From Candidatus Kaiserbacteria bacterium (lineage in GTDB: Bacteria; Patescibacteriota; Minisyncoccia; Phycocordibacterales; Phycocordibacteraceae), in NCBI GenBank assembly GCA_963813065.1, contig CAWEXP010000010.1, positions 96,250 through 160,249 on the forward strand: a stretch of DNA of 64,000 nucleotides. Reading direction: 5' to 3'. The position numbers and the translations under genes are program-made. Within the stretch, counting starts at the first letter, position 1. Each line of letters opens with the position of its first letter. Positions 11,007 through 38,160 of the stretch are shown here, piece by piece. A model generated the notes under the pieces. The model ran no database searches. It was not told the origin of the DNA and saw nothing but the letters and a program-made list of their open reading frames with translations.

Positions 11007-11021
11007 GTTATAGTGCACACC

Positions 11022-14012: not shown

Positions 14013-14072
14013 TTTCTGTTTTTCGTGCTTCGGATTTGTTTCGATTTTCGGATTTCGTGCTTCGGATTTTTT
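14013..14072. repeat. Right arm of the inverted repeat flanking the four-helix-bundle gene; contains a tandem TTCGTGCTTCGGATTT x2
   Basis: See the left arm at 13604-13640. Confidence 0.45.
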
Positions 14073-14151
14073 AATGCTAGGCCATGTAATTGTCCCCTCC
14101 CTTGTTTCTGGCGGGCCTTGTGCTCCGTTTGGATGCGGTATCATATGCTCC

Positions 14152-18801: not shown

Positions 18802-18861
18802 ATTTTTGGGCTATACACAGTACCTCTCGCATCCGAGCCGAGAAAGCCTTATACTGAAAGC

Positions 18862-19602
18862 ATGAATGAGATAACTATTGAGGACAAGAAATATGTCTCG
18901 TCCAAAAAAGCCGCAGAGATGACGGGCTATGCAAAGGATTACGTCGGCCAGCTCTGTCGCGAAGGGCGTGTTCCGGCTCGCCTTATCGGTCGGAACTGGT
19001 ACGTACTTGAGTCCGCGATAGAGGATCATCGCTTCGGACCCGAAGAAAAGGCTTCAAAAACCAAGGAATCAAAGGTTGAGACAGCTGGCGCTACTACTGA
19101 TACCTGGCCGATCTCGCATTACGAGTCTGCAGAATTGGCTCACATCCCAAGCATTAACCGCCTCGCTATGCCGTCTCAAAAAAAAGAAAGCGTATACGAG
19201 CAACCAAAGCCCGTAGAAGAGATGGGAAGTGTCTGGAAGGAGTGGTTCGTGCAGGCATCGGGAGCCTCAGAAGCCGCACAAGAGCAAATAGAGGTCGTAG
19301 AGAGCGAGCCGGAACAACCAGAAGTAGTCACAGAAGAGGAGATAGAGAGCGAAAGCGTCGAGGTCAATGTTCCCCTACGCACTGTCCAGCACGCCCCTGC
19401 GGCTCCCAGTGAGGAGATAGAGGATGAAGAAGAGGAAGTAGTGGCTCCGCCGAGATCTATGTTCATACCGAAGCTTGTTGCAACCGCACTCGCCATCATT
19501 TTTTTGGTTCTGTTCGCCGCAAACAGTGGCTATCTAGATACTTTCATAGGCTCGAGTCAACAAGCTTCCATATTCACTGGCATCTCTACCTATAGTAAAT
19601 AG
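18862..19602 (+). CDS. Membrane-anchored protein with an N-terminal excisionase/MerR-like HTH (HTH_17), acidic linker and C-terminal TM helix. Paralogous to the N-terminus of the giant protein at 20213.
   Basis: KKYVSSKKAAEMTGYAKDYVGQLCREGRVPARLIGRNWYVLESAIEDH parallels ITTKEAHDISGYSPDYLGRLARSKKVVAKRIGRAWLIERSSLEHF of the next gene. Glu-rich linker, then TM IPKLVATALAIIFLVLFAA. Confidence 0.5.
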   Translation: MNEITIEDKKYVSSKKAAEMTGYAKDYVGQLCREGRVPARLIGRNWYVLESAIEDHRFGPEEKASKTKESKVETAGATTDTWPISHYESAELAHIPSINRLAMPSQKKESVYEQPKPVEEMGSVWKEWFVQASGASEAAQEQIEVVESEPEQPEVVTEEEIESESVEVNVPLRTVQHAPAAPSEEIEDEEEEVVAPPRSMFIPKLVATALAIIFLVLFAANSGYLDTFIGSSQQASIFTGISTYSK

Positions 19603-20212
19603 CGTATTTTATAATTTTCTCGTCTCGGATAGCAGAGATATAAAAATAGAACAGAAAGAAGTGAATTGAGTCTAAAATGCTCAAACCAATTGATGCTGAA
19701 GCATACTAAGTAGTTTGCTGATCAATTTTTGAATGATGGCCCTGATGTGAGAATTTGGAGTAATTATCTATTTCTTTTACTCACCTGTGAATATTGTATA
19801 TAAAGAATGCCTCTCCCCGTGTGTAAGAACCAACGTGTAGTATTTTTATACTTCTACAAGCACATCGATACATACAATACATACGTTATAGCTAGGCTTT
19901 ATAAGCCAATGTCGGAGAGCCGTCCTGCTGATCTAAATATATAGTCTCTATTTCAAATTTTTGCGCAAATATATCTCAGATCGTCATCGCCGAGGTCATT
20001 TTAACTCATCTGAATTGTTCCGAGGCTTATGCTTGTGCTGTCAGCGTGACTTCGTCGATTTTGGAGGTGCTGATCTATACAGAAAACATCCTTACTCGCC
20101 CATTTATTTTCCGTACAAAAAATTCTCGAAAAAACTGCTTTGACTATCCACAAGCAAACACTAACGGATACCGGATAAACCAGATAAACTATAGTTAATT
20201 CGGTTATCCGAC
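19603..20212 (+). promoter_or_regulatory. 610-bp AT-rich, non-coding leader upstream of the giant surface-protein gene (candidate promoter/regulatory region)
   Basis: Sharp local drop in GC, no ORF longer than 60 codons, and several short inverted repeats (for example CGGATAAACC...GGTTATCCG just before the ATG). Confidence 0.3.
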
Positions 20213-23200
20213 ATGAACCCTCTACTTGAAAATAATTTCATCACGACAAAAGAGGCTCATGATATTTCTGGGTACTCTCCGGACTATCTCGGACGACTCG
20301 CTCGATCAAAAAAAGTAGTTGCAAAAAGGATTGGCCGCGCGTGGCTTATCGAGCGGAGCTCTCTTGAGCATTTCATACAGAAACAAAACACGCGCAAGGT
20401 CGAATTCTCTAGGGAACTCTCGCGGACTCGCGAGAACGAGTATCATGCGGAGCAATCACTGATTGTCAAAACGGCGCGCGCACTCACGACGCCACTCTTG
20501 ACGCCATCGGTTCCGGTTGCCGCAAGCTCGTTCTCCCTCCGTAGGGAAGTCTTCGCTGTAGTAGCCGCATTTCTTGTGGTGGGAAGTGGCGCATTTATTG
20601 CACACGCAGGAAGCATCAGTGAACTCGGCGCATTCGGTAGCACGCTCGCACTCAAGTCTGCAGAAGGATTCCAAGCAGTAAGCAGTGCGCTCTCCGCGAC
20701 GATTCGTGAGCGAGTCGCGTTGGTGAACCGCACCGAGAGCGATGCGCATCTCGCCGCCGCGACGCGGATCAATCGCGCATCGGCGTCGGTCGCACCGATT
20801 GCATTCACCGTGCCGAGCAATACTGCGCTCGCTCTGCGTACGGGCGCGAGCCAGATTGCGATCAACACCGTGCGGGTCGCCGAACTGGTCCACGTATCCG
20901 CACCCGCACGCGTTGCGGTCTCGGTCCCAACCGTGCAAGAAATACTTTCTGCCATTGAACACGCGCCACTCGATGCAACACTTGCGCTTGGTAACACCAT
21001 CATCGCAGTGACGCACGCGAGCATTGGTGGCGAGGTATCGCTCGCGTATGGATTCGCCAATGGCGCGCCGATAGTCGCACAAGGGAGCGTCGCGCTCATC
21101 GAAGAGTCTGGTGCAGAACTCGCACTCGCGACCGCGCACCTCCCGAGCATCGCGACGGCTCTGTATCTCGGTAGCGCTGGAGCAATCGCGAACGCGGCAC
21201 CCACAGTTGCGAACGCGGCGTGGAGTCAGGAATACGCACTCGCACAGAACTTCGTTGCGGGGACGAACACGATCCTCGCACTCGACTGGGGCGCGCTCGC
21301 GGGCACGAGCGATATTGCCGGCACGATTGCAGTCACCACGACGCAGATAGGCGCAAAAATTGCAGCAGTTGCGCCGCAATTCTCGGCTATTGCTGAAGAT
21401 CGCGTGCTCGGCGCACTGGGCAAAACAGCACTCGCGCTCGACCAGCTCACACCCACCATCATCCGGACACCGCTCAATCGCCTCGCCGTTGCCGCGGTCG
21501 CCGCCGCACTGCCGCCGCTCTCGGCAGGCGAGCAGGCGGCGCTCTCGACCTACATGACCATCAACAGCCTCTTCAAGAGCGCCTCGGATGAACTCGCCCT
21601 CATTCTCTCACCCGAACCAAATATTATTTTGCCGAGCCCGGTCGCGATTACGCACCCCGCACCAATCACCGCGACCAGTTCGGCGGTGCGTACCATCGCG
21701 ACACGCGCGACCTACAACACCATCGTGCAGGGTGTCTCGCAGAATTATGTTGACCAGTCAATCGCGGATGCAAAAAATAATTTGATCGCGCAGATGAACG
21801 CGCTCGTCGCACCGCTCTCGCGGCAGGTCGTGACCAACGAGACCACCATCCAGCAGGTGAACATGATCCAGTCGCTCACGGACCTTATCCTCCACACGCC
21901 GGTAATCGATGGTGCACAGATTTCTAATTCTAACTTCGGCGGTCACACGGTCTCGGCGGACCTGGGCACCTTCGGCTCGCTCATTGCGATTGCGGCGAAT
22001 CTCGGCAGTACGACGGTGAACACACTCAATGTGATGGGCGACACCACGCTCGCGGGCAATCTCACCATCGGTGGCAACACCACACTCGGCTCTACCACCA
22101 TCGCCAGCAGTTCTATCGCCTCGCTTACGGCAACGAACGCGACAATCACGAATGCAACCACTACCAATCTCATCGCGCAGAATTTTTCGATCACCGGCAC
22201 GGGCGCAAACATTTTGCTCTCGACTGATTCACTCGGTCACGTCACGGGCACGACGACGCCCTCGGTCGCCGCACTCTTCGCGACCTCGACCACGGCCACC
22301 TCGACCTTCGCGGGCGGCCTCGCCGTTGGAAATAATTTCTTAAACATTCTCCAGAACGGTCGCATCGGCATCGGCACTTCGACGCCCGCGGTCGCCTTCG
22401 ACATCTACGCCACGGACGCCATGCGACTCCCCGTCGGCACGTCGCTAGATTGTCCGGCCGTGGGCGACGTCGGGTACGTTCGCTACAACACCACCACGCA
22501 CCAGTTCGAAGGCTTCGGCGATAACCAAGTCTGGCAAGGGCTCGGCGGCGTCATCAACGCGGCGCAGACCACCTACATCACCGCAGACGATGCGAATATT
22601 CTCCACTTCGTCACCAACTCTACCGAGCGCATGAGCATCCTTGCCAACGGCAACGTCGGCATCGGCTCGACAACGCCATTTTCTCGCCTCTCGCTCGCGG
22701 GCCTCGCGGGCGACAGTACGAATCTTTTCACTATTTCTACTTCCACATCGAATTCAACCACCACTGCACTGACTGTCGACAACAACGGCAATCTCTCATT
22801 GCTGAACGGCACCACGCTCACGGCACCGACCATCAATGCGGGCACGGCTCTGCAATTGAATGGCACCAACATCAATACCGCCGGCACGCTCTCGAATGTT
22901 GCATACCTCAATCAGGCGCAGACCTTCTCACAGCTCCAGCAGTTCGCGGGCGGTGCCTCCTCCACCGCGCTCGCGCTCAATTACACCTTCGGCGGTACGG
23001 CGCCGCTCACCATCATGCAGAATGGTATCTCGACGCCGGTCTTCACTATTGACCACTCGGGCCTCCTCACTGCTTCGCCCTCGACTGCCACCTCGGGCGG
23101 GGCGCTCTTCAACTTCGGCAACGGCTCCGGGCAAGTCTTCTCGGGTGGCACCGCGTTCCTGCTCAATCCTGCGACCGTCGATGGAACCAGCTATCTCCTT

Positions 23201-26200
23201 GCCGCACAGATTGGCGGAAACACCAAGTTCGTCATCGACCACAGCGGTAGCGTGGGCATTGGCAACAACAATCCGGGCAAGACGCTCGATGTCACAGGCA
23301 CCACGCGCATCTCGGGCGTGCTCACGCTCTCTGGGCTCGGCTCGCCCTGCGTCGGCGCGCAAGCTCTGCAGGCTGACTCCTTGGGCAATATTTCCTGCGG
23401 TTCTATTTCAACCACGGGCATCTCGAGTGCCGGTGGCTGGACCACCAACAATGTCGGTCTCGTGACGCTCTCGACTAGCACCGACGCCGTTGCGCTTGGC
23501 GCGACCTCCACTCCGTATGCCAAGTTCGTCGTCATCGGCAGTAAGACCGCGAGCACCACACTCGCCATCATTCCTTTCGCCGGACAGACCGCGAACATTC
23601 TCGATCTCTACAACAACAGCGGCAACCTTTTCTCGGTCATCACCGGCAATGGCAATATCGGCATCGGCACCTCTACTCCGGCCTCGAGCGTAGATATTTA
23701 TGCCACCGACGCGCTCCACTTGCCGGTGGGCACGAGCGCACAGCGCCCCGCGATGGCGCTCGCCGGTCAGGTCCGCTACAACACCACGACGCACCAGTTC
23801 GAGGGCTTCGGCGATAACTCGGTCTGGCAAGGGCTCGGTGGCGTCATCAACGCCGCGCAGACCAGCTACATCACGGCTGACGCCTCCGACTTCCTCCACT
23901 TCGTCACCGCTTCCATCGAGCGCATGACCATCGCGAGCAATGGGAATGTGGGAATTGGAAGCACCTCGCCCTACGCCGCGCTCTCTGTCTCCACTTCGAC
24001 TTCGTATTACGCCGGCCAAACCCTCTTCGCCATTGCGAACTCCGCGAGCTCGACGCTCCTCTCGGTACTCGGCAATGGCAACGTCGGCATCGGCACCACG
24101 ACTCCCGGTACGCTGCTCGGCGTCCAAGGGACTGGCGTATTTGCAGGCAATCTCTATGCGACCAATATCGTCGCGACTTCGTCAATCACTGCACCGAGCC
24201 TCACGCTCGCCTCCGCTCTCACCGTCCCCAACGGCGGCACGGGCCAGGTTTCGTTCCCCTCCGGCAACCTTATATATGGAGCGGGCACGGGCGCTCTGCA
24301 ATCGGCCGCCACCACCACCCTCACTACCGGCGGCGCGCTCTCGTTCTCGGCAAATCCTGTCATCATTGGTGCCTCTTCACCATCCCTCTCGCTTTCTAAT
24401 AACTCCACTCTCACCACCTCGGGCAACACCCTCGGCATCAACCTCGCGAATCCGAACATTTACACCGCGCTCCAGACCTTCGCCAATGCCTCCTCGACCC
24501 TCTTCTCCTCCACCTACGCCTCCTCGACTAACGCCTTCTTCGGCACTTTGAGCGTCGGCGGCTCTGCGACGATTAGCTCTCTCTCGGTGGGGAATCTGAA
24601 CGGACTCCTTTCCGGCACGAACGGGGCAGTCTCTGCTACGGCCAACGGCACCAACGGCCAAGTGCTCGCTATGAGCGGCGGCATACCGACCTGGGTCGCC
24701 TCGACCACACTCGCCAACATCAGCGGCACGCTCGGTGTCGCGAGCGGCGGCACAGGAAGCGCAGTCACCTTCACCCAGGGCTCCGCGATATTTGCGGGAG
24801 CGGGCGGTATCTATTCGCAAGACAACGCCAACTACTTCTATGACGCGATTAATCATCGCCTCGGTCTCGGGACAACATCACCCTACGCCCAGCTCTCCGT
24901 CTTCGCGGGTGGCGACTATCTCTCGCACGCGTTCTCGACACTCTTCGCCATCGGCTCTTCCACGGCAGGCACAGCGACCACCACGCTATTCTCCGTCGAT
25001 AGCGCGGGCAATGTGAACGAGGGTACCGCGGCCGCGACCACGACTATCGCAGGTGGCCTCTTCGTCACTGGCACGGCGGACGTGGAGAACTCCATACTCG
25101 GCAGCCTCACCTTCGCGAACGACGCGGGCGCTGGTTTGAGCTGGATGAATCTCCCCCTCCTCTCCGCAGCCGCCGCCACGCCCGAGAGCTACTCCGCGAG
25201 CATCGCCGGCACGCCCATCCTCACTGTCTACGGCACCTCAAACGGCTCTGGGGGCGTCGCCTCCTACGGTGTCGGCATCGGGACGACGGTACCCCTGTCA
25301 AAGCTTGATGTAAATGGCGGTGTGGCAATCGGTGCGTATGCCGGCGCTAACGCCGCGCCGTCGAACGGGATGATAATAAGCGGCAACGTCGGCATCGGCA
25401 CTACCTCGCCCTACGCAAATCTCTCGGTGATGGCGGGCGGCGACTACGCAAATCACGCACCCTCGACGGTATTTGCGATTGGTTCTTCGACCGCAGGCAC
25501 GGCGACGACGACGCTGTTTAGCGTGAACTCGAACGGGAATGTGAATGCGCTCGGCTATTTGCGGGTGGGATCGACTGCAACACCTGCGAACACGACCGCA
25601 GGCGACCTTACCGCCACGCGACTTTCTATTGGCAACAGTTCGCTGAGCAATGCCGCGACTGACTTTGGTCTTGTGACAGGGACGATGAGCGCAACCTCGG
25701 GCGGCGATATTGGCTTCTATATCAATCCAACTATCGCACCCGTCTCTGACTCAAGCGCCGAGTTCCGCGCCTTCAACATGAACGCGACGATAAATGCCGC
25801 AGGCATCAACTTCACCGGCTCTAACCTCACCTCTCCAGAAGCGCTCCGTAACGAGGTTCGTGTCACTAACTCCGGCAATATAACCGAGGTGCATGGCGCG
25901 ACGATGTACGGTCTCGTCCTCGGGAGTGCTGCTGCAACCATGGGCACGGTGACGGCGGTGACCGGGATATATGTGCGCGCGGTAGACTCCTTCAGCAACG
26001 CTCTCACATCAACAATCTCTAATGCTTATGGCATCCGCATATCCAACAATTCCAACTCGGGGACCGGGCCGCTCACGTACACTAACCAGGCAGGACTCAC
26101 GGTAGAGGCGCAGACCACCGCGACCAACAACACCGGCATTCTGCTCGGTACCGCCACCATCCCCACCGGCAACTTCGGCATCTATAACTCCTCGACCAAT

Positions 26201-29200
26201 AACAACTACTTCGCGGGCAACCTTGGTGTCGGCGTCACTTCGCCCAGCTACAAGCTCGACGTCGCGGGATTCATCAACACCGACCAGTACAGCGGCTACA
26301 AGCAGGCGGGAAATACGGTCTTGTATGCGAGCACGACGAACGCGAGTCTTGCGGTGGGTGCATCGAGCGCAGCTGCATGGATGGCGGCGAGCTCCACACT
26401 TCTTTACAATATCGCTATCGGCAGTGGCGCACTCAACACAGCTCCCACTTCTGCCGGTACGGCACAGTTCAACACTGCCATTGGTGCCAACTCGCTGTTG
26501 AGGCAACACCACGGGAAATAGAAACTTCGGGTTGGGGTTCAGTGCGCTCAACCTCAACACGAGTGGTTCCTACGACACAGGGATTGGTTACCTCGCCCTT
26601 AGCACCAACATTGCTGGTTCGAACAGCATCGGTATCGGCGGCAATGCTCTTCGTTTCAACACTGCCACAAATAATATTGTTGCTATAGGTCATGATGCGG
26701 CGTGGGGCAACACTGTCAGTTACTCAAACCAAGGCGGTACCTATATTGGTTATCAGTCTGGAGCTAATGCTTCTACCAACTCCGACTACAACACATTCTT
26801 GGGCTACCAGTCCGGTTTTGGAGTGACAACAGGTAATGACAATATTATCCTCGGCGTGAACCCTAATACGGGAGGTGGCAATAATCTCACCACTGGCGCC
26901 AATAACATCTTGATTGGCTACAACGCCATTGCGCCCTCGGGAGCCGCCGCCAACAACCAGCTCAACATCGGCAACTTCCTCTTCGGCACGGGGCTCACGG
27001 CAACTTCGTCTTCGACTTCGCTGCCCACGGCGCTCACCGGCAACTTGGGCCTCGGCACCTCCACTCCCTCTTCGACTCTCTTCGTGCAGAACAATTACGG
27101 TGCCGGCCCCGCCTTCACCATCGCCTCCTCCACCAACTCCTCGGGCACCACTGCCAACACCCTCCTTACTGTCTTGAATAATGGCAACGTCGGCATCGGG
27201 ACGACCTCGCCGCTCACCTCGCTCGATGTCGGCGGCCAGGTCACCTACGTCGGCCCATTCTCCGCCTCCAACATCCCGGTCGCTTCGTTCTCTGCGAACT
27301 CCAATGCGGTATCAGGGGTCCAGTTTACCAACGTCAACACCGGCACTGTTGCAGACTTCCGCTTCGCGATTGCCGACCAGACCGGCAACTACACTGCGCT
27401 CACGATGCCTTCCACCGGCAACGCCGCTGCTACCGTCTTTGGCCTCGCGCGAAGCACGGCGACGTTCCTCTTCAATAACGGCGGCACTACGCGCGCCTTC
27501 GGCATCGGGACGCTCGGTGCAAACGATCTCGTGCTCGGCACCAACGGCACTGATCGCCTCCACATCACCTCCGCCGGCAACGTCGGCATCGGCACCACCT
27601 CACCCTACGCCAATCTATCGGTGATGGCAGGGGGGAATTATGCGAGCCTCGCGCCAAGCACGGTCTTCGCGATTGGTTCGAGCACGGCGGGCACAGCGAC
27701 GTCGACACTATTCAGTATCAATAGCTCTGGTCTAGTGACAAATAATGGGAGCGAGACTATCGCGGGTAAACTTGGGATAAACAACACCAACCCGCAATAC
27801 ACTCTCGACGTCGCGGGCTTCATCAACACCGACCAGTACAGCGGCTACAAGCAGGCGGGGAACACCATTCTCTATGCGAGCACGACCAACAGCACGCTCG
27901 CCGTTGGTGCCTCAAGTGCGGCGGTATGGATGGCAGCCTCCTCGACGCAGTGGTATGACACAGCGGTCGGGTATGGCGCACTTGCTACGACACCCACCAC
28001 GGGCACAGCACAATATAACTTCGCGATCGGTTACCAAACCCTCAATTCCAACACTGCTGGACTCGGCAATACGGCGATTGGAATGCAATCCTTGCTAAAC
28101 AACAGCACTGGTTCCAATAATATTGCCATGGGTGGTGCTACTCTTGGTCAGAATACTACTGGCAGCAACAATACAGCTGTCGGTGTGAGTGTACTTCGTT
28201 ACAACACGCTCGCAGCAAACTCGACTGGTTTCGGTGCATACGCCGGATACGGTAACGCGCTCTCATACTCAAACACCGGCGGCACCTACATCGGCTTTAG
28301 AACAGGGTATTTTGCCTCCACCAACTCCGACTACAACACCTTCCTCGGATACCAGGCGGGGTATGACGTTACGACTGGCAATGACAACATAATCATAGGT
28401 GCGAACCCGAACACGAGTGGCTCCCACCTCACCACGGGGATGAACAACATCCTCATCGGGTACAACGCCATCGCGCCCGAGGGAGCGGCCGCGAATAACG
28501 ACCTCAACATCGGCAACATCATCTTCGGCACCGGGCTCACCGCGACGAGCTCGGCGACCACGGTGCCGACCGCGCTCTCGGGGCTCATCGGTATCGGGCA
28601 CGAGCACGCCGTGGGCGAATCTCTCAGTACAGAGCAATTACGGTAGCAGTGGGGTCGGCGCGACGACGACTCTCTTCGCCATCTCCTCATCCACCAATGC
28701 GAGCGGGAGCACGAGCAACGGCCTCTTCATCGTGCAAAACACACCCTATACCAATTCCAACGTGCGTGTGCTTGTCAACGAGAACCAACTACTAAACGTC
28801 AATGACACGATGGAGGTTAACGGCACGCTGAACGTCAATGCGCTCACTATCAACCAGGCGAGTCTCATCGGCAACACCAATGGCTACAGCTGGGTACGCG
28901 GCGCGGCCGCGCAGGGGATTGCTTTCCTCGTGAACGGCACGACTGGTGCCACAGCACCTACTGGCGCCGCAGCAGTCATCACTTCGGGAGGGAACGTCGG
29001 CATCGGGACGACGACTCCCGCATATCCTCTGGATGTAGTGGGAAGCGGCGAGCAGTTCGAGAACACATACCTTTCGTTGAATCCGTATGCGAGCACCAAC
29101 GCACAGATCTCAGTGAGCGGCGGCAGGGCTTACTTCGGCTATGACAGTTCGAACGGGAATGCGGTCGTACAGGGAGCTGGCGGCAAGGGAATCGAGTTTA

Positions 29201-32200
29201 ACGTCAGTAACTCCACTTTCGCCTCCGGCACTGCGGCAGTCCTCAGCTCAGCCGGTAACCTCGGCATCGGGACGACATCGCCTTACGCCAATCTCGCCAT
29301 ACAGAATAATTACGGCTCCAACAACACGACGCTCTTCTCGATTGGCTCCTCGACCGCGAGGAACGGGAGCACGGCGAGTACGCTACTCAAGGTGAGCAAC
29401 ACCGGCGCACTCACCCTCGCCAACTTGGCAGGGAATGCGAACGGGGTGGTCTATCCAGACGCCAACGGCACCCTCAACGTCACCGCCGCAGGCGGTGCAG
29501 GCACGCTCTGCCTCATCGCGACCAACGGCGGCGTGCCCACCTGGGGCTCCTGCGCAGGCTCGGCCTCCACGGTCTGGAGCCAGCTCTCCAACCCCACCGG
29601 CAATCTCGCGCTCTCGATGGGCGCCAACACTACCACCTTCACGGCCCAGAACACGGGCAGCAATAACCCCTTCACCTTCGCCGACAACACCAGCAACGCT
29701 GGCACGGGCATCCTAGTCAATATCGCGAGTGCGGCCTCCTCGGCCATCACGCCCTTCCAGGTCTCGGCGGTAGGGAATCCGGCGTTGACGGTCGCCGCCT
29801 CCGGCAACGTGGGCATCGGGACCACCTCTCCCTATGCCAATCTCTCGGTGATGGCGGGCGGTAATTATGCGAGCCAGGCGGCGAGTACGGTGTTTGCGAT
29901 TGGTTCCTCCACCGCGGGCACGGCGACGAGTACGTTGTTTAGTGTTAACAGCGCGGGGAATACGAACATTGCAGGGTCGCTGACAGTCGCGGGCAATCTT
30001 GTCTCGGTGCTCAATCAGACTGGCACTGGTAATGTGGTGTACTCGGCAAGCCCGAGCCTTACAGGAGGTCTATTCATTACGCCCGGTCCCCTTACGATGG
30101 GCACTTCAGGTCAACGAGGTGTTATTTCAGTACCACTTGCTAACCAAATACAGATAGGTCCGGCCGATGTTGATACGACTGCCGCTATGGGCGCCCAAAT
30201 CCTTCGTTCCCAAGGCGCGCTCGCAGGCGGCACGGCAGATCAGGCGGGCGTGAACTGGACATTCATCGCTTCGCCCGGCAAAGGTCTAGGTGCGGGCGGT
30301 TCCTTCGTCTTCCAGACGGTGCCCGCTGGTTTGGTGAGTAATACAGTCGTCAACGCGCCGGTTACAGCATTGGTTATTAATTCAGCGGGCCTCGTCGGCA
30401 TCGGGACTACATCCCCTTATGCGAAGCTCTCGGTGATGGTGGGAGGGAACTATGCGAGCCAGGCGGCGAGTACGGTGTTTGCGATTGGTTCCAGCACGGC
30501 GGGCACAGCGACGTCGACACTATTCAGTATCAATAGCTCTGGTCTAGTGACAAATAATGGGAGCGAGACTATCGCGGGTAAACTTGGGATAAACAACACC
30601 AACCCGCAATACACTCTCGACGTCGCGGGATTCATCAACACCGACCAGTACAGCGGCTACAAGCAGGCGGGGAATACGGTCTTGTATGCGAGTACGACGA
30701 ACGCGAGTCTTGCGGTGGGTGCATCGAGCGCAGCTGCATGGATGGCGGCGAGCCCGACCCTTTTACAGAATGTTGCCATTGGAGTCGGAGCTCTTGCGGC
30801 AACTCCGGCTGTGGGCTCACCTGGCGACCAGTACAACACGGCAATTGGCTATAACGCGCTCAATGCAAATACCACCGGCTCGTACAACTTCGCTCTCGGG
30901 TCTTGGGCGCTCCTCAACAATACAAGCGGTGTACGCAATACCGCTCTCGGTACGAGTGCTCTCTACACAAACAACGGTTCATACAATTCCGCATTTGGCA
31001 TGAATGCTCTTTATTCCAATACCACTGGCTCCAACAACACAGTTTTCGGTTATTCGGCAATTCGTTATGCATCCGCGGTAAACAACGTTACTGCAATCGG
31101 TTATCAAGCTGTAAGTGGGGGTACCACCTTCTCCAATCAAGGCGGCACCTACGTCGGTTATGGTTCAGGCTATTCGGCGGGCACCAACTCCGACTACAAC
31201 ACCTTCCTCGGGTACCAGGCGGGGTACCCCAACACCACAGGATTCGACAACATCCTGATAGGGGCGCAGAAGAACACCATCGGGGCAGGGTACCTCTCCA
31301 CCGGCGGGGACAACATCGGCATCGGTTTTAACACTCTCTTCCCGAGCGCGACCGCCAACAACCAGCTCAACATCGGCAACTTCCTCTATGGCACGCTCCC
31401 TGCCACTACCACCGCCTCCACCTTCGGCCTGCCGACCACCGGCAACTTCGGTATTGCCACCACCACCTCCGCACTCTTCGGCATCCACGCCAACAACGGC
31501 GCGAGCTACTCCTCGCTCTTCATGATTGGTTCTTCTACCGCGAGTGCGACTACCACGCTCTTCACGGTCTTGAACACGGGCAGCGTCGGCATCGGCACCA
31601 CCAGCCCGCAGTGGCTGCTCTCGCTCTCCGGCGGTGGGCAGAGGATTAAGGAGACGAGCGACATCCTGAACGCGTTCTCGATAGAGAACTCGGTCGGCTC
31701 TACGACCGTCGCCGCCGATACGATCGACACGAGCGGCAACATCTTCTCGGTCGCGACCAGCTCCGGCACCGATTACTTCGACGTCGCGGCGAACGGTAAC
31801 ATCGCGCTCTCGACGAGCGTGTACTCGACCTGTAGCAGTCTCTCCACCAGCGGTGGCGTCATCCAGTGCTCGGTCTCTGATCAGCGATTGAAGCAGAACA
31901 TCACCACGCTCGCGCCAGCGACTGGCCTCGCCGCCATCGACGCATTGAATCCGGTTTCCTACACCTTCATCGACCCGACGCGTCCGCAGGGCACGCAGTA
32001 CGGATTGATTGCGCAACAGGTACAACAAGTGCTCCCGGCGCTCGTCGCCACTTCCTCGCCGACGGCGCTCACGCCCGACGGTACGCTGACCGTGAACTAT
32101 GACGGCCTCATCGCGCCGCTTATCGAGGCAGTCCAACAGCTCGACGCGCGGACGAAGGGGATTTCGAATTCGGCTTCAAGCACCGTGATGACCTTCGACA

Positions 32201-33600
32201 TCTCGGGCAACGTCGGGCTCGGCGTCGCACCGAGTGCCGCAGATAAATTGACCGTCGGCGGCAACATTTTCGCGCAGGCATACGAGGTGCCAGCCGGCAC
32301 GGTGACGGCGTATACGTTTGGCGCGGCAAGTGGAAGTCAGACTTCCAGTTCCGACGGAGGAAGTCAGACTTCCTTTGCCGCGCCGATACCGAGTGTGGTG
32401 CTTACGGCAGGTGGACGGGTCGACCTCTACAAGCTCGCAACCTACAATCTCTCGGGTATCTCCGCGCTTGCGGTGCGCCTCCAGACCGACGAGATGCGCC
32501 TGACCTCGCTCGAGGCACGCGTCGCAGAGCTCGAGAATGGTTCCATCGCCGTCTCGACCTCGACGCCGTTCTCCACCTCGACCCTCGCCTCCGCCTTCTC
32601 CGGCCTCGGCGCATACATCCAGCAGGGCATCGCGCAATTTGGCATCCTCGTCGCCGACCAGTTCGTCGCCGCGACCAACTCGGCGGGTACGAGCTCCGCG
32701 GGCACCGTGACGATTCCGGCCGGCAACACGGTCGCGGTGGTGACGAACGCGTACGTCAATCCGGCGTCCAAGATTTTCGTCACCTTCACTGCCTCGACCA
32801 CCGCCTCTTGGTACATCAGCGACAAGCAGAACGGCTCCTTCAAACTCATCCTCTCTGCGGCGCCGACGAGCGATATCTCCTTCGACTACTTCATCGTCCA
32901 GACGCAGGGCCAGATCGCGACCAGCACGCCCGTTTCTGAAGGAGGTCAGACCTTCACAAATCCTCAAGGTCTGACCTCCCAGCCCGTGATTACTCTGCTC
33001 GGCGACAATCCGCTCCATCTCTCGGTCGGTGGTACCTTCGTCGAGCCGGGCGTGAGCGTGCATGACTCTGATGGCACCAATGCGTACGTCACCTTCGTCA
33101 ATGGTGTGCAAGAAACCATTTCCTCGACGACGCTCGACACGTCGAGCCCGACCACTTATATCATCACGTACAGCGCGACCGACAGCTCGGGCAACACTGC
33201 GACCGCGCGCCGCTCGGTGATCATCGGCAATCCAGACGGAACCGTTTCTTCCGGCGCCGGTGGAGGTCAGACCTTAAATCCGAATCCTCAAGGTCTGACC
33301 TCCTCGGCACCGGCTGATACCACGCCACCCGTTGTCACTCTCAATGGTTCGGCGGCACTCACCACCTCGCAAGGCACGACCTTCACTGATCCAGGCGCAA
33401 CGGCAACCGATGATACCGATGGTGACCTGACCAGCAAGATTAAAGAAACGGGTACCGTCGACACGACAACCCTCGGCCTCTACACGCTGACCTACTCGGC
33501 CACCGACTCAGCAGGGAACACCGGTACCGCCTCGCGCGTGGTCTCGGTTGTCGCGGCTCCGAGTGCGCCAAGCGACGCTTCCACAACGCCCGCGGGTTAA
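20213..33600 (+). CDS. Giant (about 4,460 aa) HTH-TM-anchored, Gly/Thr/Ser/Ala/Asn-rich repetitive surface protein. It has tail-fibre-like repeats, an S74-type intramolecular-chaperone motif and two DUF5011 Ig-like domains. One gene, split by two frameshifts near 26500 and near 28600.
   Basis: ORFs 20213-26521, 26532-28646 and 28732-33600 carry the same repeat unit (GNVGIGTTSPYANLSVMAGGNYA...AGFINTDQYSGYKQAGNT(V/I)LYASTTN...) straight across both junctions; the reading frame just slips at GC runs. Other domains: HTH_17-like N-terminus plus TM (VFAVVAAFLVVGSGAFIAHAG); SDQRLKQNITTLAPATGLAAIDALNPVSYTFIDP...YGLIAQQVQQVLPALV near 31870; C-terminal DUF5011-like segments (PVITLLGDNPLHLSVGGTF...; PPVVTLNGSAALTTSQGTTF...TYSATDSAGNTGTASRVV). 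Confidence 0.7.
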
Positions 33601-33602
33601 AC

Positions 33603-34046
33603 ATGGAAAAAGATTTTGACGGCTGGAATGTGCTCAAAAAGTCGATACATGTGGAGCGGGGCGCCTTAAACGCGAATCAACGCGAACTCTGGTGGATATC
33701 ATTCGGCATGAATGTCGGTGTTGAGATTGATGGCAAAGATGAGAGCTATGAGCGACCCGGCATAGTGTTGAGGAGGTTCAACCGTGAAATGGCGTGGGTA
33801 ATCCCGACAACCTCACGAGAGAAGAATTTACCCTTTTACTCCCGTTTCTCGTACGAAGGGAAGGATTATTGGGCAGTACTTACTCAAGTACGAGTCGTTA
33901 GTACCAAGCGTTTCTTACGGAAGGTTGGGATGATATCTCAAGAACGTTTTTCTGAAATGCAGAAGAAGCTTGCGGAATTCGTTTTCTTTGATGAAAACGA
34001 ACGGAACCCCGCACGGGGCGGGGTTCCTCGGAGGCCGAAGCCGTAA
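33603..34046 (+). CDS. PemK/MazF-family endoribonuclease toxin-like protein (orphan; no adjacent antitoxin ORF)
   Basis: WWISFGMNVGVEIDGKDESYERPGIVLRRFNREMAWVIPTTSREK... follows the PemK/MazF SH3-like barrel pattern (GD-I-W-V-DF...RP-LVLS...V-P-TS). Its start sits 2 nt after the giant gene's stop. Confidence 0.5.
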   Translation: MEKDFDGWNVLKKSIHVERGALNANQRELWWISFGMNVGVEIDGKDESYERPGIVLRRFNREMAWVIPTTSREKNLPFYSRFSYEGKDYWAVLTQVRVVSTKRFLRKVGMISQERFSEMQKKLAEFVFFDENERNPARGGVPRRPKP

Positions 34047-34054
34047 TCAAGACT

Positions 34055-36139
34055 ATGATACTCCCCGCAACTAAAAAGTCAATGAAGGTGTGGATAGCAC
34101 TCGCGCTCCTCCTCTGCGGCGCGGCTTTCGCCGCGCCACACTCCGCTCTCGCCACCGAAGTGACGAAACAAGGTCCGACTACTAATGGTTTGGTTGGGTA
34201 TTGGAAGTTTGATGACGCGAGCGGTACCGTGGCCGCCGACAGCTCGGGCAACAGCAAGAAACTTACCTGCACTAGTACCGGATGGTCCAGAGGGAAGCTG
34301 GGGTCAGCAAGTGTTTTTGCTGGAAATAGCGCAAGTGTATGTGTGAGAAGTTCTGCGAGTGACTTTCAAGTACCAGGTGACGTCACCGTTTCGGCATGGA
34401 TATTTGCGACATCGACTGGTAGTGGACAGGAGATCGTCAGGAAGGGACAGCTGACCGATGAGCAGTATGGGTTACTCTACAATGGTTCGATAAAAAGTAT
34501 CGGTTTCCAACAATACAACGGTACAGCTTTCGAAGGTCCGGGTTCATTGGCGGGATCGGTGCCCCTCAACACGTGGGTTCAAGTTACCGCAGTTCGCAGT
34601 GGCACCACAGTGACTATGTATGTGAACGGTACGTCTAACGCTTCCGGAACAGTAGGGACTCCCGCGACTCCAACCAGCGGTCTTTCAATCGGATCAAACT
34701 CGGTTACAGGTGGACAGAACTTTGCCGGCTCCCTCGACGACGTCCGCATTTACAACCGCGCACTCTCCGCCGCCGAGGTGCAGGCGCTCTACAAGGCAGG
34801 CGAGGTAGACCTCAAACAGGGCCCGACTAACGGCGGCCTCGTTGGGTACTGGAAATTTGACGAGGGTGTGGGCACTAAGGCTACAGACTCCTCCGGTATT
34901 ATTGGCGATACACTCGGGTGTACCAGTTTCATCTGGACACCCGGCAAGCTTGGCGGAGCCATCCAGCTTAACGGCAACACGACGAGTTGGTGCCAACCGG
35001 CTTCAAATAATCGTCCCTCGCTTTCCCTAACGGGCAATATGACTACGAGCGTATGGATGTATTCAACTTCCACCTCTGCTATCCAGGGGGTCATTCGCAA
35101 TGGACAAGGAACGGATGAACAATATTCTATCTATTATGATGGCGGGAATCAGAGGATTGGATTTGGGTGGTATGACGGTAGTGCGTTCCAGGGCCTTGCC
35201 TCTACAGTGGGCAGTGTCCCTCGTAATCAATGGATACTAGTTACCGTAACGCGGACCGGCAGTGCGCTCGCTTTCTATGCGAATGGGGTGCCTGTCGGGA
35301 CAGCCACTTTCACCAGTGCACCAAATACGCCGAGTATTTTCACCATCGGCGGGACAAACAGTGGTAGCCAAGCCTTCGTCGGCAAGCTTGACGACGTCCG
35401 CCTCTACAACCGCGCGCTCTCCGCCGCCGAGGTGCAGGCGCTCTACAAGGCGGGCGAGACGAAAGCTCAGACCAGCTCCGCGCCCCTCACCAACGGCTCC
35501 ACTCTACAAAGCGGCCTCACTGGCCTCTGGACCTTCGACGGCAACGACTTCTCGATCCCGCAGGGTATTCTTGATAAATCCGGTAATGGCAACAGTGGTT
35601 ATTTCATTGGCGGCGCGACCTCCAGCGCCATAACGATAGGGAAGATGGGCCAGGCGTTGAAGTTTAATTCAGCGAGCAGTCAGAAAGTCTCGCTCTCAAA
35701 TCTACCAACGTCGGGTACGTCAAACTTCTCTATATTCGCGTGGGTCAACTCATCTACAGTTGGCACGAGAAAAGGAATCGTCGCATACGGGAGCAACACG
35801 ACAGATACTGGCGTCAATCTGTTTATAAACCCATCTAATCAAGTTGAATCGGATTTATCGGCCGATCCCGGTCCCAGCTCAACGGCAACTGTCACTGATG
35901 GTAAGTGGCATTTGGTCGGAGTGACAAATGCCGGCGGCACAATGCAAGTCTACGTTGATGGAGTGGCGAGTGGTTCAAGTCGAGCGAAGACTCCAAACAT
36001 AGTGTCAAGACCAAATTTCAATCTTATTGGTGAGGATTTCTTTCCCGCTTATTTCAACGGCTCCATCGACGACGTCCGCGTCTACTCTCGCGCTCTCTCC
36101 GCGTCCGAAATCAAGCAGCTCTACAACCTCGGCAAATAG
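34055..36139 (+). CDS. Secreted protein with three tandem LamG (concanavalin-A-like lectin, Laminin_G_3) domains
   Basis: Signal peptide; three repeats of LVGYWKFDE..G....DSSGN...(G)SLDDVR(I/L)YNRALSAAEVQALYKAGE. Confidence 0.6.
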   Translation: MILPATKKSMKVWIALALLLCGAAFAAPHSALATEVTKQGPTTNGLVGYWKFDDASGTVAADSSGNSKKLTCTSTGWSRGKLGSASVFAGNSASVCVRSSASDFQVPGDVTVSAWIFATSTGSGQEIVRKGQLTDEQYGLLYNGSIKSIGFQQYNGTAFEGPGSLAGSVPLNTWVQVTAVRSGTTVTMYVNGTSNASGTVGTPATPTSGLSIGSNSVTGGQNFAGSLDDVRIYNRALSAAEVQALYKAGEVDLKQGPTNGGLVGYWKFDEGVGTKATDSSGIIGDTLGCTSFIWTPGKLGGAIQLNGNTTSWCQPASNNRPSLSLTGNMTTSVWMYSTSTSAIQGVIRNGQGTDEQYSIYYDGGNQRIGFGWYDGSAFQGLASTVGSVPRNQWILVTVTRTGSALAFYANGVPVGTATFTSAPNTPSIFTIGGTNSGSQAFVGKLDDVRLYNRALSAAEVQALYKAGETKAQTSSAPLTNGSTLQSGLTGLWTFDGNDFSIPQGILDKSGNGNSGYFIGGATSSAITIGKMGQALKFNSASSQKVSLSNLPTSGTSNFSIFAWVNSSTVGTRKGIVAYGSNTTDTGVNLFINPSNQVESDLSADPGPSSTATVTDGKWHLVGVTNAGGTMQVYVDGVASGSSRAKTPNIVSRPNFNLIGEDFFPAYFNGSIDDVRVYSRALSASEIKQLYNLGK

Positions 36140-36900: not shown

Positions 36901-37001
36901 TTATACCCAATGCATAAGGACATTATTGCCCGTGGGTGGAGAACTTCTTATTTTTGTGTAAAATAATTCGGTTCGCTCGCTTTCTTATTCATAAGCTCGC
37001 T

Positions 37002-38153: not shown

Positions 38154-38160
38154 TAGGTGG

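Follow-up and report, generated by a model that had tools for sequence, protein, structure and literature searches.

A probable giant membrane-anchored surface fibre of Paceibacteria, encoded by one chromosomal gene that appears as three reading frames

Three adjacent open reading frames in the 64-kb stretch of DNA analysed here (the window) raise the question of whether they are pieces of a single gene and, if so, what a protein of this size would do for a member of the Paceibacteria ('Parcubacteria', CPR). A first-pass annotation had proposed one gene split by two frameshifts, and the frames that it named are present on the + strand. The features that bear on this proposal are as follows.

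20213–26521, + strand: first open reading frame, frame 2
26532–28646, + strand: second open reading frame, frame 0
28732–33600, + strand: third open reading frame, frame 1
20213–33600, + strand: single giant gene, 4,461 codons once two inserted bases are removed
26501, + strand: frameshift 1, one surplus base (CTGTTG-A-GGCAAC; equivalently, one G of GG)
28596–28598, + strand: frameshift 2, one surplus G (GGG run in GGTATC-GGG-CACG)

Removal of A 26501 and of one G of GGG 28596–28598 yields a merged frame of 13,386 nt (4,461 codons) with no internal stops. At the first junction, frame 2 ends in ...FNTAIGANSLL and frame 0 picks up with GNTTGNRNFGLGFSALN, while at the second, frame 0 ends in ...LSGLIGIG and frame 1 picks up with TSTPWANLSVQSNYG. 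Direct DNA repeats of 137–300 nt (65–91% identity) link all three frames, and three paralogous modules of about 330 aa (merged-protein residues 2000–2330, 2516–2840 and 3453–3800) show no gap in their alignment at either junction, indicating that exactly one base is surplus at each site. The stop-free merged frame and the gap-free alignment confirm that the three neighbouring frames form one gene, interrupted by two 1-nt insertions.

These breaks are most likely assembly indel errors rather than biology, because secA and the transketolase gene in the same window are split likewise (secA into 11013–11897, 11909–12850 and 12504–13604; transketolase near 42010 and near 42900). Rpe is cut short, probably by a frameshift too, and the frameshifts of the window, those of the giant gene included, sit in short G/C runs. 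Two shifts in the 13.4 kb of the giant gene compare with a background of at least seven in about 18.5 kb of coding sequence examined. Genuine frameshifts, whether of a recent pseudogene, a slippage-switched contingency locus or a gene read through by programmed +1 frameshifting, are improbable. Phase variation is classic for surface adhesin genes, both shifts are +1 and lie within short G runs, and two related loci (L051 and L057) contain early stops; however, equivalent shifts in the essential secA and transketolase genes within the same 64 kb would be intolerable for a living cell, runs of two to three G are much too short for useful slippage rates, the downstream frames are conserved and open for 700–1,600 codons with no secondary stops, and the shift rate of the giant gene is in keeping with the background given above.

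The merged protein comprises, in order, a Xis/MerR winged helix, a transmembrane (TM) helix, an Ala-rich region, repeats resembling those of tail fibres and of the mosaic adhesive trimer (MAT) fibres of Bdellovibrio, an S74 domain, a coiled coil, a beta-sandwich and two Ig-like domains.

20240–20386, + strand: winged-helix domain (HTH_17, Xis/MerR type), cytoplasmic, aa 10–58 (Pfam 29.8 bits)
20543–20611, + strand: single TM helix, predicted signal-anchor, aa 111–133 (REVFAVVAAFLVVGSGAFIAHAG; Kyte-Doolittle)
20612–21892, + strand: conserved Ala-rich juxtamembrane 'stalk', aa 134 to about 560 (Ala 21–27%)
21893–31875, + strand: fibre body, aa about 561–3887 (PHROG, phage and MAT-fibre matches)
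26210–27203, 27759–28734 and 30571–31614, + strand: three beta-roll-like modules of the fibre body
31876–32046, + strand: Peptidase_S74 intramolecular chaperone/autocleavage domain (Pfam 55.5 bits)
32425–32535, + strand: heptad-like helix LYKLATYNLSGISALAVRLQTDEMRLTSLEARVAELE, putative trimeric coiled coil (AF2 helix 282–318, low monomer confidence)
32674–32901, + strand: small conserved beta-sandwich domain (…SWYISDKQNGSFKL…FDYFIVQ; AF2 pLDDT 77–89, many invariant columns)
32974–33231 and 33319–33576, + strand: two Bact_surface_Ig-like (DUF5011) domains (Pfam 119.7 bits over the two stretches)

The N-terminal helix-turn-helix (HTH), previously described as excisionase-like, exceeds the HTH_17 cut-off of 27 bits and is modelled by AF2 with pLDDT 81–88 at residues 10–60, its best fold matches being Pukovnik Xis (4j2n; TM 0.71–0.74, rmsd 1.7 Å), BldC (6amk) and a RacA–DNA complex (5i44). 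Residues T12, A15, G20, Y21, D24, Y25, L26, R28, L29, G41 and W44 are invariant across orthologues, the basic wing motif IGRxW is kept and a conserved basic helix follows up to about residue 80, the cytoplasmic 110 aa being the most conserved section of the protein. The single TM helix that had been proposed corresponds to residues 111–133, the sole 19-residue window among 4,461 aa with a Kyte-Doolittle mean >1.8, and a hydropathy peak lies at residues 106–132 in all long family members. The N-terminal 110 aa contain 18 K/R, and the ectodomain is 2–9% charged. Other surface proteins of the window carry ordinary signal peptides, and the HTH-TM anchor is therefore specific to the giant gene. The Ala-rich stalk, located where it had been placed, terminates in a neck motif (YNTIVQGVSQNYVDQS...IQQVNMIQSLTDL) and its motifs are conserved in 16 orthologues; AF2 renders it as long helices, yet with pLDDT <50.

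The fibre body (about 3,300 aa) is about 50% G/T/S/N, with 21 G[IVL]G[TSN] motifs. Its repeats cross both junctions as first described, but the proposed unit of roughly 120 aa was imprecise, since the repeats consist of a GIGTTSP unit of about 75 aa and a module of about 330 aa made of 15–16-aa NTxxGxxNxAxGxxAL turns. Both motifs originally quoted occur three times each, GNVGIGTTSPYANLSVMAGG with its copies at aa 1724, 2455 and 3197, DVAGFINTDQYSGYKQAGNT with copies at aa 2016, 2532 and 3469. The likeness to phage tail fibres and tail spikes holds, with PHROG matches to tail spike, virion structural and long-tail-fibre proteins and tblastn matches of the 15–16-aa repeat module to annotated phage tail fibre proteins (33–42% identity), although the closest characterised relatives are the cell-encoded MAT fibres of Bdellovibrio, among them Bd2439 (8ol4) and Bd2133 (8ond, E=3.3e-10), with further PDB matches to 8oml, 8ojn and 8on4. 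A profile built from the three beta-roll modules of the window gave no match to solved structures. Judged from homology only, the fibre body may form a trimeric beta-prism. The protein contains seven Cys, including three pairs spaced by 12–16 residues, one of these pairs immediately before the predicted cleavage site, and this pairing would count toward an extracytoplasmic location of the fibre.

The S74 domain scores far above its Pfam cut-off (22 bits), and the SDQRLK motif lies where the first-pass annotation put it. Within this motif, S3888 and K3893 form the predicted Ser-Lys dyad, both residues being invariant among 13 homologues, with a predicted cut between V3887 and S3888. The i,i+5 spacing is the same as in MyRF (S587/K592) and endoNF (S911/K916) (PMC8326128). 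Foldseek matched the S74 model to MyRF's intramolecular chaperone/autocleavage (ICA) domain (7dc3; prob 1.0, TM 0.55–0.59, rmsd 3.4 Å), and the A2 profile matched 8jov (a tail fibre), 6f45, 7dc3 and 3gud in the PDB. The two DUF5011 domains were also recovered, with PDB matches 2kpn, 4mb3 and 5fq7 and AF2 pLDDT of 73–94, while inter-domain geometry in the C-terminal model is at pLDDT <50. S74 is absent in about half of the family, which counts against the explanation favoured below; those members nevertheless retain this C-terminal module, and the heptad-like helix is kept in all members, with or without S74. Cleavage by S74 would detach the sole recognisable adhesin-type (Ig-like) domains, an awkward fit for a tip adhesin.

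Phage tailspikes and fibres with a C-terminal chaperone (endosialidase endoNF, T5 pb1, GA-1/phi29 neck appendage) share with the giant fibre the Pfam S74 domain, the i,i+5 Ser-Lys dyad, a fibre body upstream of the chaperone and the repeat module at the identities given above. Unlike them, the giant fibre is encoded outside a virion cluster, is anchored in the membrane of its producer, is three to four times longer and carries conserved Ig-like domains C-terminal to the cleavage site, where phage proteins have a bare chaperone.

An intact giant gene is the normal state in the family. Complete single-ORF orthologues span 2,175–3,928 aa, further frames are open for at least 3,992–4,124 aa and run off the locus end, and uninterrupted representatives reach 4,883 aa; P0170 (3,655 aa) holds HTH_17, S74 and two Ig-like domains in one ORF, as does P0006. 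The architecture originally called an unusual combination is borne out, but it is peculiar to no one genome, being that of a conserved syntenic gene shared by dozens of ultra-small Paceibacteria. About 58 of 67 related Patescibacteria loci have the order obg, gatB, small HTH/TM gene, giant gene, and neighbouring genes include obg, gatB, gapdh, tkt, aldolase and ribosomal protein genes. The surroundings of the giant gene also include genes for IS200-like transposases and for a MazF-like toxin. These nearby genes, the PHROG and phage tblastn matches and the S74 domain could be taken to mark the tail-fibre gene of an integrated prophage or phage-tail-like particle, which is barely conceivable: among the examined ORFs of the window, none codes for a capsid, portal, terminase, sheath, tube or baseplate protein, about 58 species share the location between gatB and genes of core metabolism, and an N-terminal HTH with a TM anchor is incompatible with virion assembly. 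The giant gene is chromosomal, its neighbours and synteny arguing against a prophage origin.

Three features lie upstream.

18862–19602, + strand: partner gene, 246 aa (N-terminal HTH_17-like winged helix, acidic linker, C-terminal TM helix IPKLVATALAIIFLVLFAANSG)
20144–20152, + strand: DnaA-box-like element CTATCCACA (exact consensus TTATCCACA in most orthologous loci)
20192–20212, + strand: nearly invariant 21-nt element TAGTTAATTCGGTTATCCGAC, abutting the start codon (cross-locus conservation)

The partner gene directly precedes the giant gene in the same roughly 58 of 67 loci. Its HTH scores slightly below the HTH_17 cut-off (26.5 versus 27 bits), shares 35% identity over 49 aa with that of the giant protein (E=1e-11) and is about 90% identical between species. 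Of the 67 loci, 51 have an exact TTATCCACA box on the + strand 59–127 nt upstream of the giant-gene ATG, usually at -69/-68 or -78/-79; in all, 978 kb contain 103 exact boxes, where 7.5 are expected. The 21-nt element, single-copy in the window (0 expected by chance), departs from the consensus at no more than three positions in 51 of 59 loci, and its mean pairwise identity is 0.83, versus 0.52 at -50..-30; its 18-nt core occurs exactly once per locus, invariably at the giant-gene start. The element is non-coding, given an in-frame TAG at -21, and may act as an operator, a leader or part of a promoter.

Such an element could point to a protein whose main role is that of a DNA-binding regulator or sensor tethered to the membrane, a one-component system like ToxR/CadC. 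The fibre would then serve as the sensory ectodomain, while the HTH, perhaps jointly with the small HTH/TM partner, would bind the 21-nt element in the promoter of its own gene. We consider this reading unlikely. It accords with the exceptional conservation of the cytoplasmic 110 aa, the fold matches to the winged helices that Xis, BldC and RacA show in their DNA-bound form, the retained IGRxW wing, the conserved partner HTH and the near-invariance of the 21-nt element between species whose giant proteins share only 30–40% identity; in cells about 0.2–0.3 µm across, moreover, the nucleoid is always close to the membrane. However, phylogeny confounds the apparent co-variation of operator variants with the HTH wing. 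A related motif (TTAATTCG) stands before the ATG of another gene, so that a role in transcription as a promoter, or in translation initiation, is just as plausible for the 21-mer. Moreover, a 4,300-aa ectodomain is extravagant in a sensor, and the HTH of a bitopic protein can bind protein, as in RodZ-MreB. ToxR/CadC-type regulators, RodZ and the RacA-type chromosome anchor share the layout of N-terminal cytoplasmic HTH, one TM helix and extracytoplasmic domain, and the RacA-DNA complex provides one of the best matches to the HTH fold, but the giant-protein HTH has no sequence relationship to the ToxR (OmpR-type) or RodZ (XRE-type) domains, its ectodomain is a fibre of >4,000 aa, and its binding of DNA or a partner is putative.

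The only characterised type joining a DNA-binding domain, a TM helix and an S74 (ICA) autocleavage domain is eukaryotic MyRF/MrfA (PMC8326128, PMC3742440). The ICA fold (7dc3) is common to both, and trimerisation-dependent Ser-Lys cleavage may be a further likeness. In MyRF, the order DBD-ICA-TM means that cleavage releases a DNA-binding trimer on the cytoplasmic side, whereas the order HTH-TM-fibre-S74 of the giant fibre would place S74 outside the cell, unable to release the HTH. The DNA-binding folds are also unrelated (Ndt80-like versus winged helix).

Bdellovibrio bacteriovorus MAT fibres are surface-located, recognise prey and fall into S74 and non-S74 subfamilies (PMC10769870). Like the giant fibre, MAT proteins (Bd2133, Bd2439, Bd3182) are cell-encoded and tail-fibre-like, and Bdellovibrio depends for its life on contact with other bacteria, as the carriers of the giant fibre may; both families include S74 members with an SDxxxK motif and members without S74, and the giant fibre has sequence-level homology to solved MAT beta-helix segments. 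MATs are smaller (about 900–1,150 aa versus 2,175–4,883 aa), begin with a signal peptide and an invariant beta-rich domain of about 130 aa instead of the cytoplasmic winged helix, TM helix and Ala-rich stalk, and end in S74, which in the giant fibre is internal and followed by about 570 aa. A genome has 21 MAT paralogues, whose C-terminal tips are swapped, in contrast to the one conserved locus of the giant fibre, with its constant C-terminus and variable middle.

This difference would also suit a structural envelope component (a glycocalyx-like coat, spacer, or protective or anti-phage decoy layer) that is no host-recognition adhesin, a role that appears unlikely. One conserved copy beside housekeeping genes at a core-genome locus in nearly every related genome, the constant N- and C-terminal modules and the extremely charge-poor, Thr/Ser/Asn/Gly-rich composition, which suits glycosylation, are in its favour, but the homology is to fibres with which phages and predators bind receptors, DUF5011 Ig-like domains typically occur in adhesins and in proteins that bind glycans, and the length of the middle region varies strongly (2,175–4,883 aa), as expected under diversifying pressure.

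We therefore favour, as the probable reading, a bitopic surface fibre of giant size (4,461 aa), encoded by a single gene of the chromosome, and propose the following attachment mechanism. The basic N-terminal 110 aa would remain cytoplasmic, with the TM helix acting as an uncleaved signal-anchor (N-in, C-out) and the remainder exported via Sec. The C-terminal S74 domain and coiled coil would nucleate trimerisation from the far end, as in tailspikes, MyRF and MAT fibres, giving a fibre of roughly 130–230 nm, about one cell diameter, that would cross the wall and bind another cell or surface. S74 would then probably cut between V3887 and S3888, either shedding a 574-aa Ig-tipped trimer or keeping it non-covalently, and the strongly conserved cytoplasmic HTH may give the fibre an intracellular partner, DNA or protein. 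The initial suggestion of a host-attachment organelle is reasonable, but the report of some Parcubacteria as free-living (PMC12625730) counts against it. New here are the cytoplasmic winged helix, the TM anchor, the conserved Ala-rich stalk and the size, together with the constant coiled-coil/beta-sandwich/two-Ig module after S74. Given its conserved chromosomal position and the analogy with MAT fibres, the giant fibre of Paceibacteria is a strong candidate for a structure that would grip other cells and may serve in host attachment.

The three consecutive ORFs that a first-pass annotation had joined into one giant gene were located on the forward strand at the coordinates proposed, in frames 2, 0 and 1, together with the gene of a small partner protein carrying a helix-turn-helix (HTH) and a transmembrane (TM) helix:

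18862-19602, plus strand, small partner, a 246-aa HTH/TM protein directly upstream of the giant gene
20213-26521, plus strand, ORF1 of the giant gene
26532-28646, plus strand, ORF2 of the giant gene
28732-33600, plus strand, ORF3 of the giant gene

At junction 1 (26501), frame 2 finishes with ...FNTAIGANSLL-RQHHGK and a stop, and the same bases in frame 0 encode GNTTGNRNFGLGFSALN; at junction 2 (28596-28598), translation of frame 0 finishes with ...LSGLIGIG-HEHAVGE... and frame 1 encodes TSTPWANLSVQSNYG. Removal of the A at 26501 and of one G of the GGG at 28596-28598 yielded a stop-free frame of 13,386 nt (4,461 codons). All three ORFs are connected by DNA repeats of 137-300 nt (65-91% identity), and three paralogous modules of ~330 aa, of which the first lies across junction 1, the second ends across junction 2 and the third is intact within ORF3, aligned with no gap at either junction. 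Because the merged frame is stop-free, the paralogous modules gap-free and the DNA repeats shared, the ORFs constitute one gene with exactly one surplus base per junction, as had been proposed; the alternative of three independent genes, each ending at its own stop, was rejected on the single open frame and the uninterrupted paralogues. We consider one gene with the architecture described here to be highly probable. The repeats previously described as 120-aa units are real, with a length that was only approximate, the actual units being an element of ~75 aa (GNVGIGTTSP...) and a module of ~330 aa composed of NTxxGxxNxAxGxxAL turns, each 15-16 aa long.

Comparable breaks occur in housekeeping genes of the window. 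The secA gene (11013-13604) is spread over three overlapping ORFs with its Pfam pieces in succession (SecA_DEAD 3-226, then PP_bind/DEAD 236-289/P-loop 1-82, then P-loop 133-205/SecA_SW), and the frame changes within a CCCGGGCCG run at its ...AEAGAPG motif. Both subunits of the split transketolase (41442-43343) are shifted (Transketolase_N 6-177 then 180-269; Transket_pyr then Transketolase_C), and Rpe (40502-41424) is without the first 64 profile positions. These housekeeping-gene frameshifts lie in short G/C runs: secA has two (at ~11900 and ~12545), tkt also two (at ~42010 and ~42900), and rpe probably one. Overall, at least seven shifts were counted in the ~18.5 kb of coding sequence examined, including two in the essential secA, and the assembly must therefore have a high indel error rate. 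As two shifts in a 13.4-kb gene equal this background rate, they are probably not biological, and we regard the breaks in the giant gene as very likely artefacts. Programmed frameshifting, which would make the two shifts a property of the gene, was rejected given that secA and tkt carry shifts of the same kind. Any other split gene of the window should be read with the high indel rate in mind. Exact-protein look-ups with GatB and ORF3 for independent sequence of the same organism returned no contig on record; a metagenome scan gave no match to the sequence at junction 2, whether or not the surplus base was included, and only relatives of ≤37% identity for the N-terminus.

The neighbours of the giant gene are cellular (obg, gatB, the small partner, a MazF-like gene, gapdh, rpe, tkt, aldolase and L25), and the LamG, HYR and Gly-rich secreted proteins encoded nearby carry ordinary signal peptides. 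A scan with an N-terminal alignment, using one genome per species, located 67 loci, all in Patescibacteria MAGs labelled Paceibacterota, Kaiserbacteria, Nomurabacteria or Minisyncoccia, with the order obg-gatB-small HTH gene-giant gene in about 58 of the 67. The giant ORF is uninterrupted where the contig permits, with complete ORFs of 2,175, 2,690, 2,791, 3,655 and 3,928 aa; other orthologues have a frame still open where the locus stops, after at least 3,992 to 4,124 aa, and early stops were seen in only two. Searched exhaustively by HMMER, the N-terminal 620 aa matched 89 representative clusters at E ≤ 1e-30, a number that rose to 365 at E ≤ 1e-10, the longest single-ORF homologue measuring 4,883 aa. 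Word-indexed searches with the same 620 aa or with a four-sequence alignment returned one protein only, and it was HMMER and the genome scan that found the family; the failure of the former was probably due to low-complexity words crowding out true relatives.

Constant across the long members are the HTH, a TM helix at aa 106-132, the stalk, a C-terminal coiled coil, a beta-sandwich and two Ig-like domains, and roughly half of these members have the Peptidase_S74 intramolecular chaperone domain (S74). Thus homologue P0170 (3,655 aa) combines HTH_17, S74 and two Ig-like domains in one ORF, P0133 (4,883 aa) has HTH_17 and two Ig-like domains without S74, and P0006 (1,755 aa) is a compact complete version. 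In MAG annotations the family is systematically broken up, the causes being contig ends, frameshifts and intein-like sequence (the last in at least one orthologue), and as a result it bears only generic names ('tail fiber domain-containing', 'immunoglobulin-like domain-containing', 'helix-turn-helix domain-containing'); NCBIfam gave no family name. In the related locus L005 (~17900-22200), the giant ORF ends in intein-like sequence (...CAGKVVYSRVN...TTGNHPYL...), and some 2.8 kb further downstream, past ...EQVYDIE..., the C-terminal module of the fibre restarts; this arrangement suggests that the gene is interrupted by an intein into which ORFs have been inserted. Hint/intein Pfam domains were also detected in homologue P0101.

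Further features of the window include a secreted or surface cluster with classical signal peptides and three IS200-like Y1_Tnp ORFs:

13644-14012, directly downstream of secA, homologue of a 23S rRNA-intervening-sequence protein (122 aa)
13984-14826, following it, Lcl_C-domain protein (280 aa)
15627-16271, minus strand, Y1_Tnp ORF
33603-34046, MazF/PemK-like toxin gene (147 aa)
34055-36139, secreted cluster, protein with three Laminin_G_3 domains (694 aa)
36196-36900, minus strand, Y1_Tnp ORF
36936-38153, secreted cluster, HYR-domain protein
38080-39255, secreted cluster, Gly-rich protein
46009-47376, secreted cluster, coiled-coil protein
47377-48216, minus strand, Y1_Tnp ORF
49260-51914, secreted cluster, 884-aa protein

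The MazF/PemK-like gene starts 3 nt past the giant-gene stop, as it does in locus L010 (21792-22145), and no obvious antitoxin ORF was found beside it. Two of the three Y1_Tnp ORFs bracket the obg-to-LamG region, and homologues occur upstream in loci L005, L006, L026 and L031. The overlapping HYR and Gly-rich ORFs are possibly another frameshifted gene.

The N-terminal architecture proposed in the first-pass annotation was borne out throughout. HTH_17 (PF12728) matches aa 10-58 at 29.8 bits, above the curated cut-off of 27; the small partner (26.5 bits, just under the cut-off) and orthologues P0133 (23.3) and P0170 (26.2) score near it, which places the family at the edge of the model. AlphaFold2 (AF2) prediction of the N-terminal 620 aa with 16 orthologues gave a winged helix, a long basic helix, the TM helix and then long low-confidence helices, with only the HTH confident (pLDDT 81-88). 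Its fold matches mycobacteriophage Xis (4j2n, TM score 0.71-0.74, rmsd 1.7 Å), BldC (6amk, 0.67), the RacA-DNA complex (5i44, 0.58-0.61) and the RdfS excisionase, with E-values that are weak because the query model comprised 620 residues. The segment at aa 111-133 is the sole strongly hydrophobic one in 4,461 residues. The 110 residues ahead of it contain 18 K/R, and the 4,328 behind it are 2-9% charged and ~50% Gly/Thr/Ser/Asn, with Ala rising to 21-27% between aa 150 and 450, where an Ala-rich stalk had been described. The basic N-terminal domain would accordingly be expected to stay cytoplasmic, with the TM helix as an uncleaved signal-anchor and all else exported. No other part of the protein is as conserved as this cytoplasmic region, with its strongly conserved recognition helix and wing, which argues for a role beyond anchoring. 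DNA binding is one option, to which the recognition helix and wing and a nearly invariant 21-nt element beside the gene point circumstantially, and RodZ-like protein binding is another; in RodZ, an HTH on a membrane protein binds a protein partner. The layout of cytoplasmic HTH, one TM helix and ectodomain is shared with ToxR/CadC, although the HTH here is a winged helix of Xis/MerR type rather than OmpR type.

The likeness of the fibre body to phage tail fibres and tail spikes also held. PHROG matches include a tail spike (phrog_4636), virion structural proteins and a long-tail-fibre distal subunit, and in a tblastn search of phage genomes the 15-16-aa-repeat module matched annotated tail fibres (33-42% identity) from phages of Pelagibacter, Roseobacter and Methylophilales and from cyanophages. 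These matches would suit a prophage tail fibre; however, the gene lies in no virion cluster, and this origin was rejected on the cellular neighbours and the chromosomal synteny conserved in about 58 loci. The second set of relatives is the mosaic adhesive trimer (MAT) fibres of Bdellovibrio, which are cell-encoded, trimeric, surface-exposed and involved in prey recognition, with 13 S74 and 8 non-S74 members (PMC10769870). A C-terminal profile including a GIGT-type segment matched Bd2133 (8ond, E = 3.3e-10) and 8oml, 8ol4, 8ojn and 8on4 ('cell wall surface anchor family', E = 1.6e-4 to 5.5e-4). Single-sequence PDB searches found only the Ig-like domain, besides a weak match of ORF1 alone (aa 766-900) to 8ol4 (E = 0.0065), and in a separate profile search no solved structure matched the three beta-roll modules.

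The fibre body is thus homologous to the beta-helix and beta-prism segments of MATs, and both families have S74 and non-S74 members. In MATs a signal peptide is followed by an invariant ~130-aa beta-rich domain (PMC10769870), whereas the giant protein, compared with that domain by its description only, begins with an HTH, a TM helix and an Ala-rich, predicted helical segment. S74 is extreme C-terminal and the tips are variable in MATs, while in the giant-gene family S74 is internal, the C-terminal ~570 aa are constant and the middle varies. The family is most aptly described as a giant MAT-like fibre with an HTH anchor, conserved across the lineage, and with bona fide S74, HTH_17 and DUF5011 domains the protein would, by its sequence relationships, work like a MAT or tail-fibre adhesin. 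Our literature search found no description of HTH-TM-fibre proteins in CPR bacteria, the nearest statement being that CPR proteins of very large size show a tendency towards surface targeting (PMC13059738).

At the C-terminus, the S74 and two DUF5011 domains noted earlier were both recovered. With 55.5 bits (cut-off 22), Peptidase_S74 (PF13884) matches over profile positions 1-57 of 58, starting at S3888, and the C-terminal profile matches S74-bearing PDB chains of tail fibres (8jov, 6f45, 3gud) and of MyRF (7dc3). The predicted dyad S3888-D-Q-R-L-K3893 (SDxxxK) has Ser and Lys invariant in 13 homologues, and its i,i+5 spacing is that of S587/K592 in MyRF and S911/K916 in endoNF, which are cut just before the Ser in a trimer-dependent manner (PMC8326128). 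AF2 modelling of the last 672 aa gave confident S74 (pLDDT 65-83), a small beta-sandwich and both Ig-like domains (73-94), plus a long helix; Foldseek aligned the S74 model to the MyRF domain 7dc3 with probability 1.0 (TM score 0.55-0.59, rmsd 3.4 Å, 107 columns). Bact_surface_Ig-like (PF16403, formerly DUF5011) covers two C-terminal stretches (119.7 bits), with an Ig-like fold matched by PDB search (2kpn, E = 4.5e-10) and Foldseek (4mb3, 2kpn, 5fq7).

The predicted cut would fall between V3887 and S3888 and, unlike in classical S74 cases, leaves 574 aa including the two Ig-like domains downstream. The cut Ig-tipped fragment may stay associated rather than be discarded, since relatives that lack S74 keep the same module covalently; this is the least certain step of the scheme. 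The protein contains seven Cys, namely a lone C747 and three pairs 12-16 residues apart:

aa 1046/1062, window ~23348-23398, Cys pair
aa 3099/3113, window ~29509-29553, Cys pair
aa 3873/3885, window ~31831-31869, Cys pair just ahead of the predicted S74 cut

Homologues have a similar Cys-x(n)-Cys loop at the last position, which may form a disulfide-stapled tip exposed after cleavage. To our knowledge, a DNA-binding-type domain, a TM helix and S74 in one protein are otherwise known only from eukaryotic MyRF, in which domain order and topology differ.

The 21 nt before the giant-gene ATG (TAGTTAATTCGGTTATCCGAC, 20192-20212) are conserved with ≤3 mismatches to the consensus in 51 of 59 loci, between species whose giant proteins share just 30-40% identity. 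Each locus contains a single copy of the 18-nt core, located in every case at the giant-gene start, and the window likewise has one copy. The DnaA-box consensus TTATCCACA lies about 70-80 nt upstream of the ATG (20144-20152), about 40 nt upstream of a TATTAT-like box, and is exact in 51 of the 67 loci (element and box have their counterparts in loci L001-L060 and L069-L094). The second exact box belongs to another conserved promoter-like region:

10765-10773, exact TTATCCACA box, 42-44 nt upstream of GATAAT in the arrangement TTATCCACA-N42-44-GATAAT...AGAAACGTTTG...GACGGGTCGAC, which most related loci also have, some 7 kb ahead of the giant gene
10896-10964, 22-aa Lys-rich ORF MAKKAKKTKKVAKKVAKKKSRR, followed by secA (11013-13604)

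Co-regulation of the Sec motor and its largest substrate is a possibility raised by this arrangement. The HTH of the small partner is about 90% conserved across species, and together with the 21-nt element and the DnaA box it offers a testable idea, not proof, of autoregulation or membrane tethering by the HTH proteins. Scans for sigma-70 promoters and terminators around the giant gene were at chance level, and Rfam found only a tRNA in the window. A hairpin-like element (TTTT-CTCGTCTCGGATA..CGAGA, 19616-19640) lies just past the stop of the small partner gene, as in most related loci; with its T-run ahead of the stem instead of behind it, the element does not qualify as a canonical terminator. 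GC skew is -0.07 to -0.185 across the giant gene (20000-34000), giving an apparent cumulative-skew maximum at about 20 kb. An oriC at this locus, suggested by the DnaA box, was set aside because the window holds only two exact boxes and the turn is explained by the high C content of the giant-gene coding strand (Thr/Ala/Ser codons), which likewise accounts for it without a replication terminus.

In the proposed scheme, trimerisation would start at the C-terminal end, driven by S74 and the coiled coil as it is in tailspikes, MyRF and MATs, and a fibre of about 130-230 nm would result (scaled from Bd2133, 142 Å for 370 residues, and Bd3182, ~550 Å) that would bind another cell. We favour this attachment function by a modest degree. 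Far more speculative is a trans-envelope contact or force sensor, in which the HTH and the small partner would bind the 21-nt element at the start of the giant gene and couple the state of a ~200-nm fibre, in an ultra-small cell, to transcription or chromosome-membrane tethering. Its states would be a fibre on a host or not, with the S74-cut Ig-tipped fragment attached or pulled off, as in GAIN-domain adhesion receptors. If true, this improbable sensor would be a prokaryotic counterpart, with topology inverted, of the MyRF-like logic of DNA-binding domain, TM helix and S74.

Paceibacteria ('Parcubacteria') rank among the most abundant bacteria and also among the least understood, and for most of them a life attached to other cells is assumed; we know of no attachment structure defined for them. 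The giant gene is a concrete candidate, being present in single copy at an identical core-genome position in dozens of species, occupying roughly 13 kb in what are typically very small genomes, and being akin to the prey-recognition fibres of phages and Bdellovibrio. Its cytoplasmic HTH, partner gene and upstream element open to testing the hypothesis that surface contact may be wired to the chromosome.
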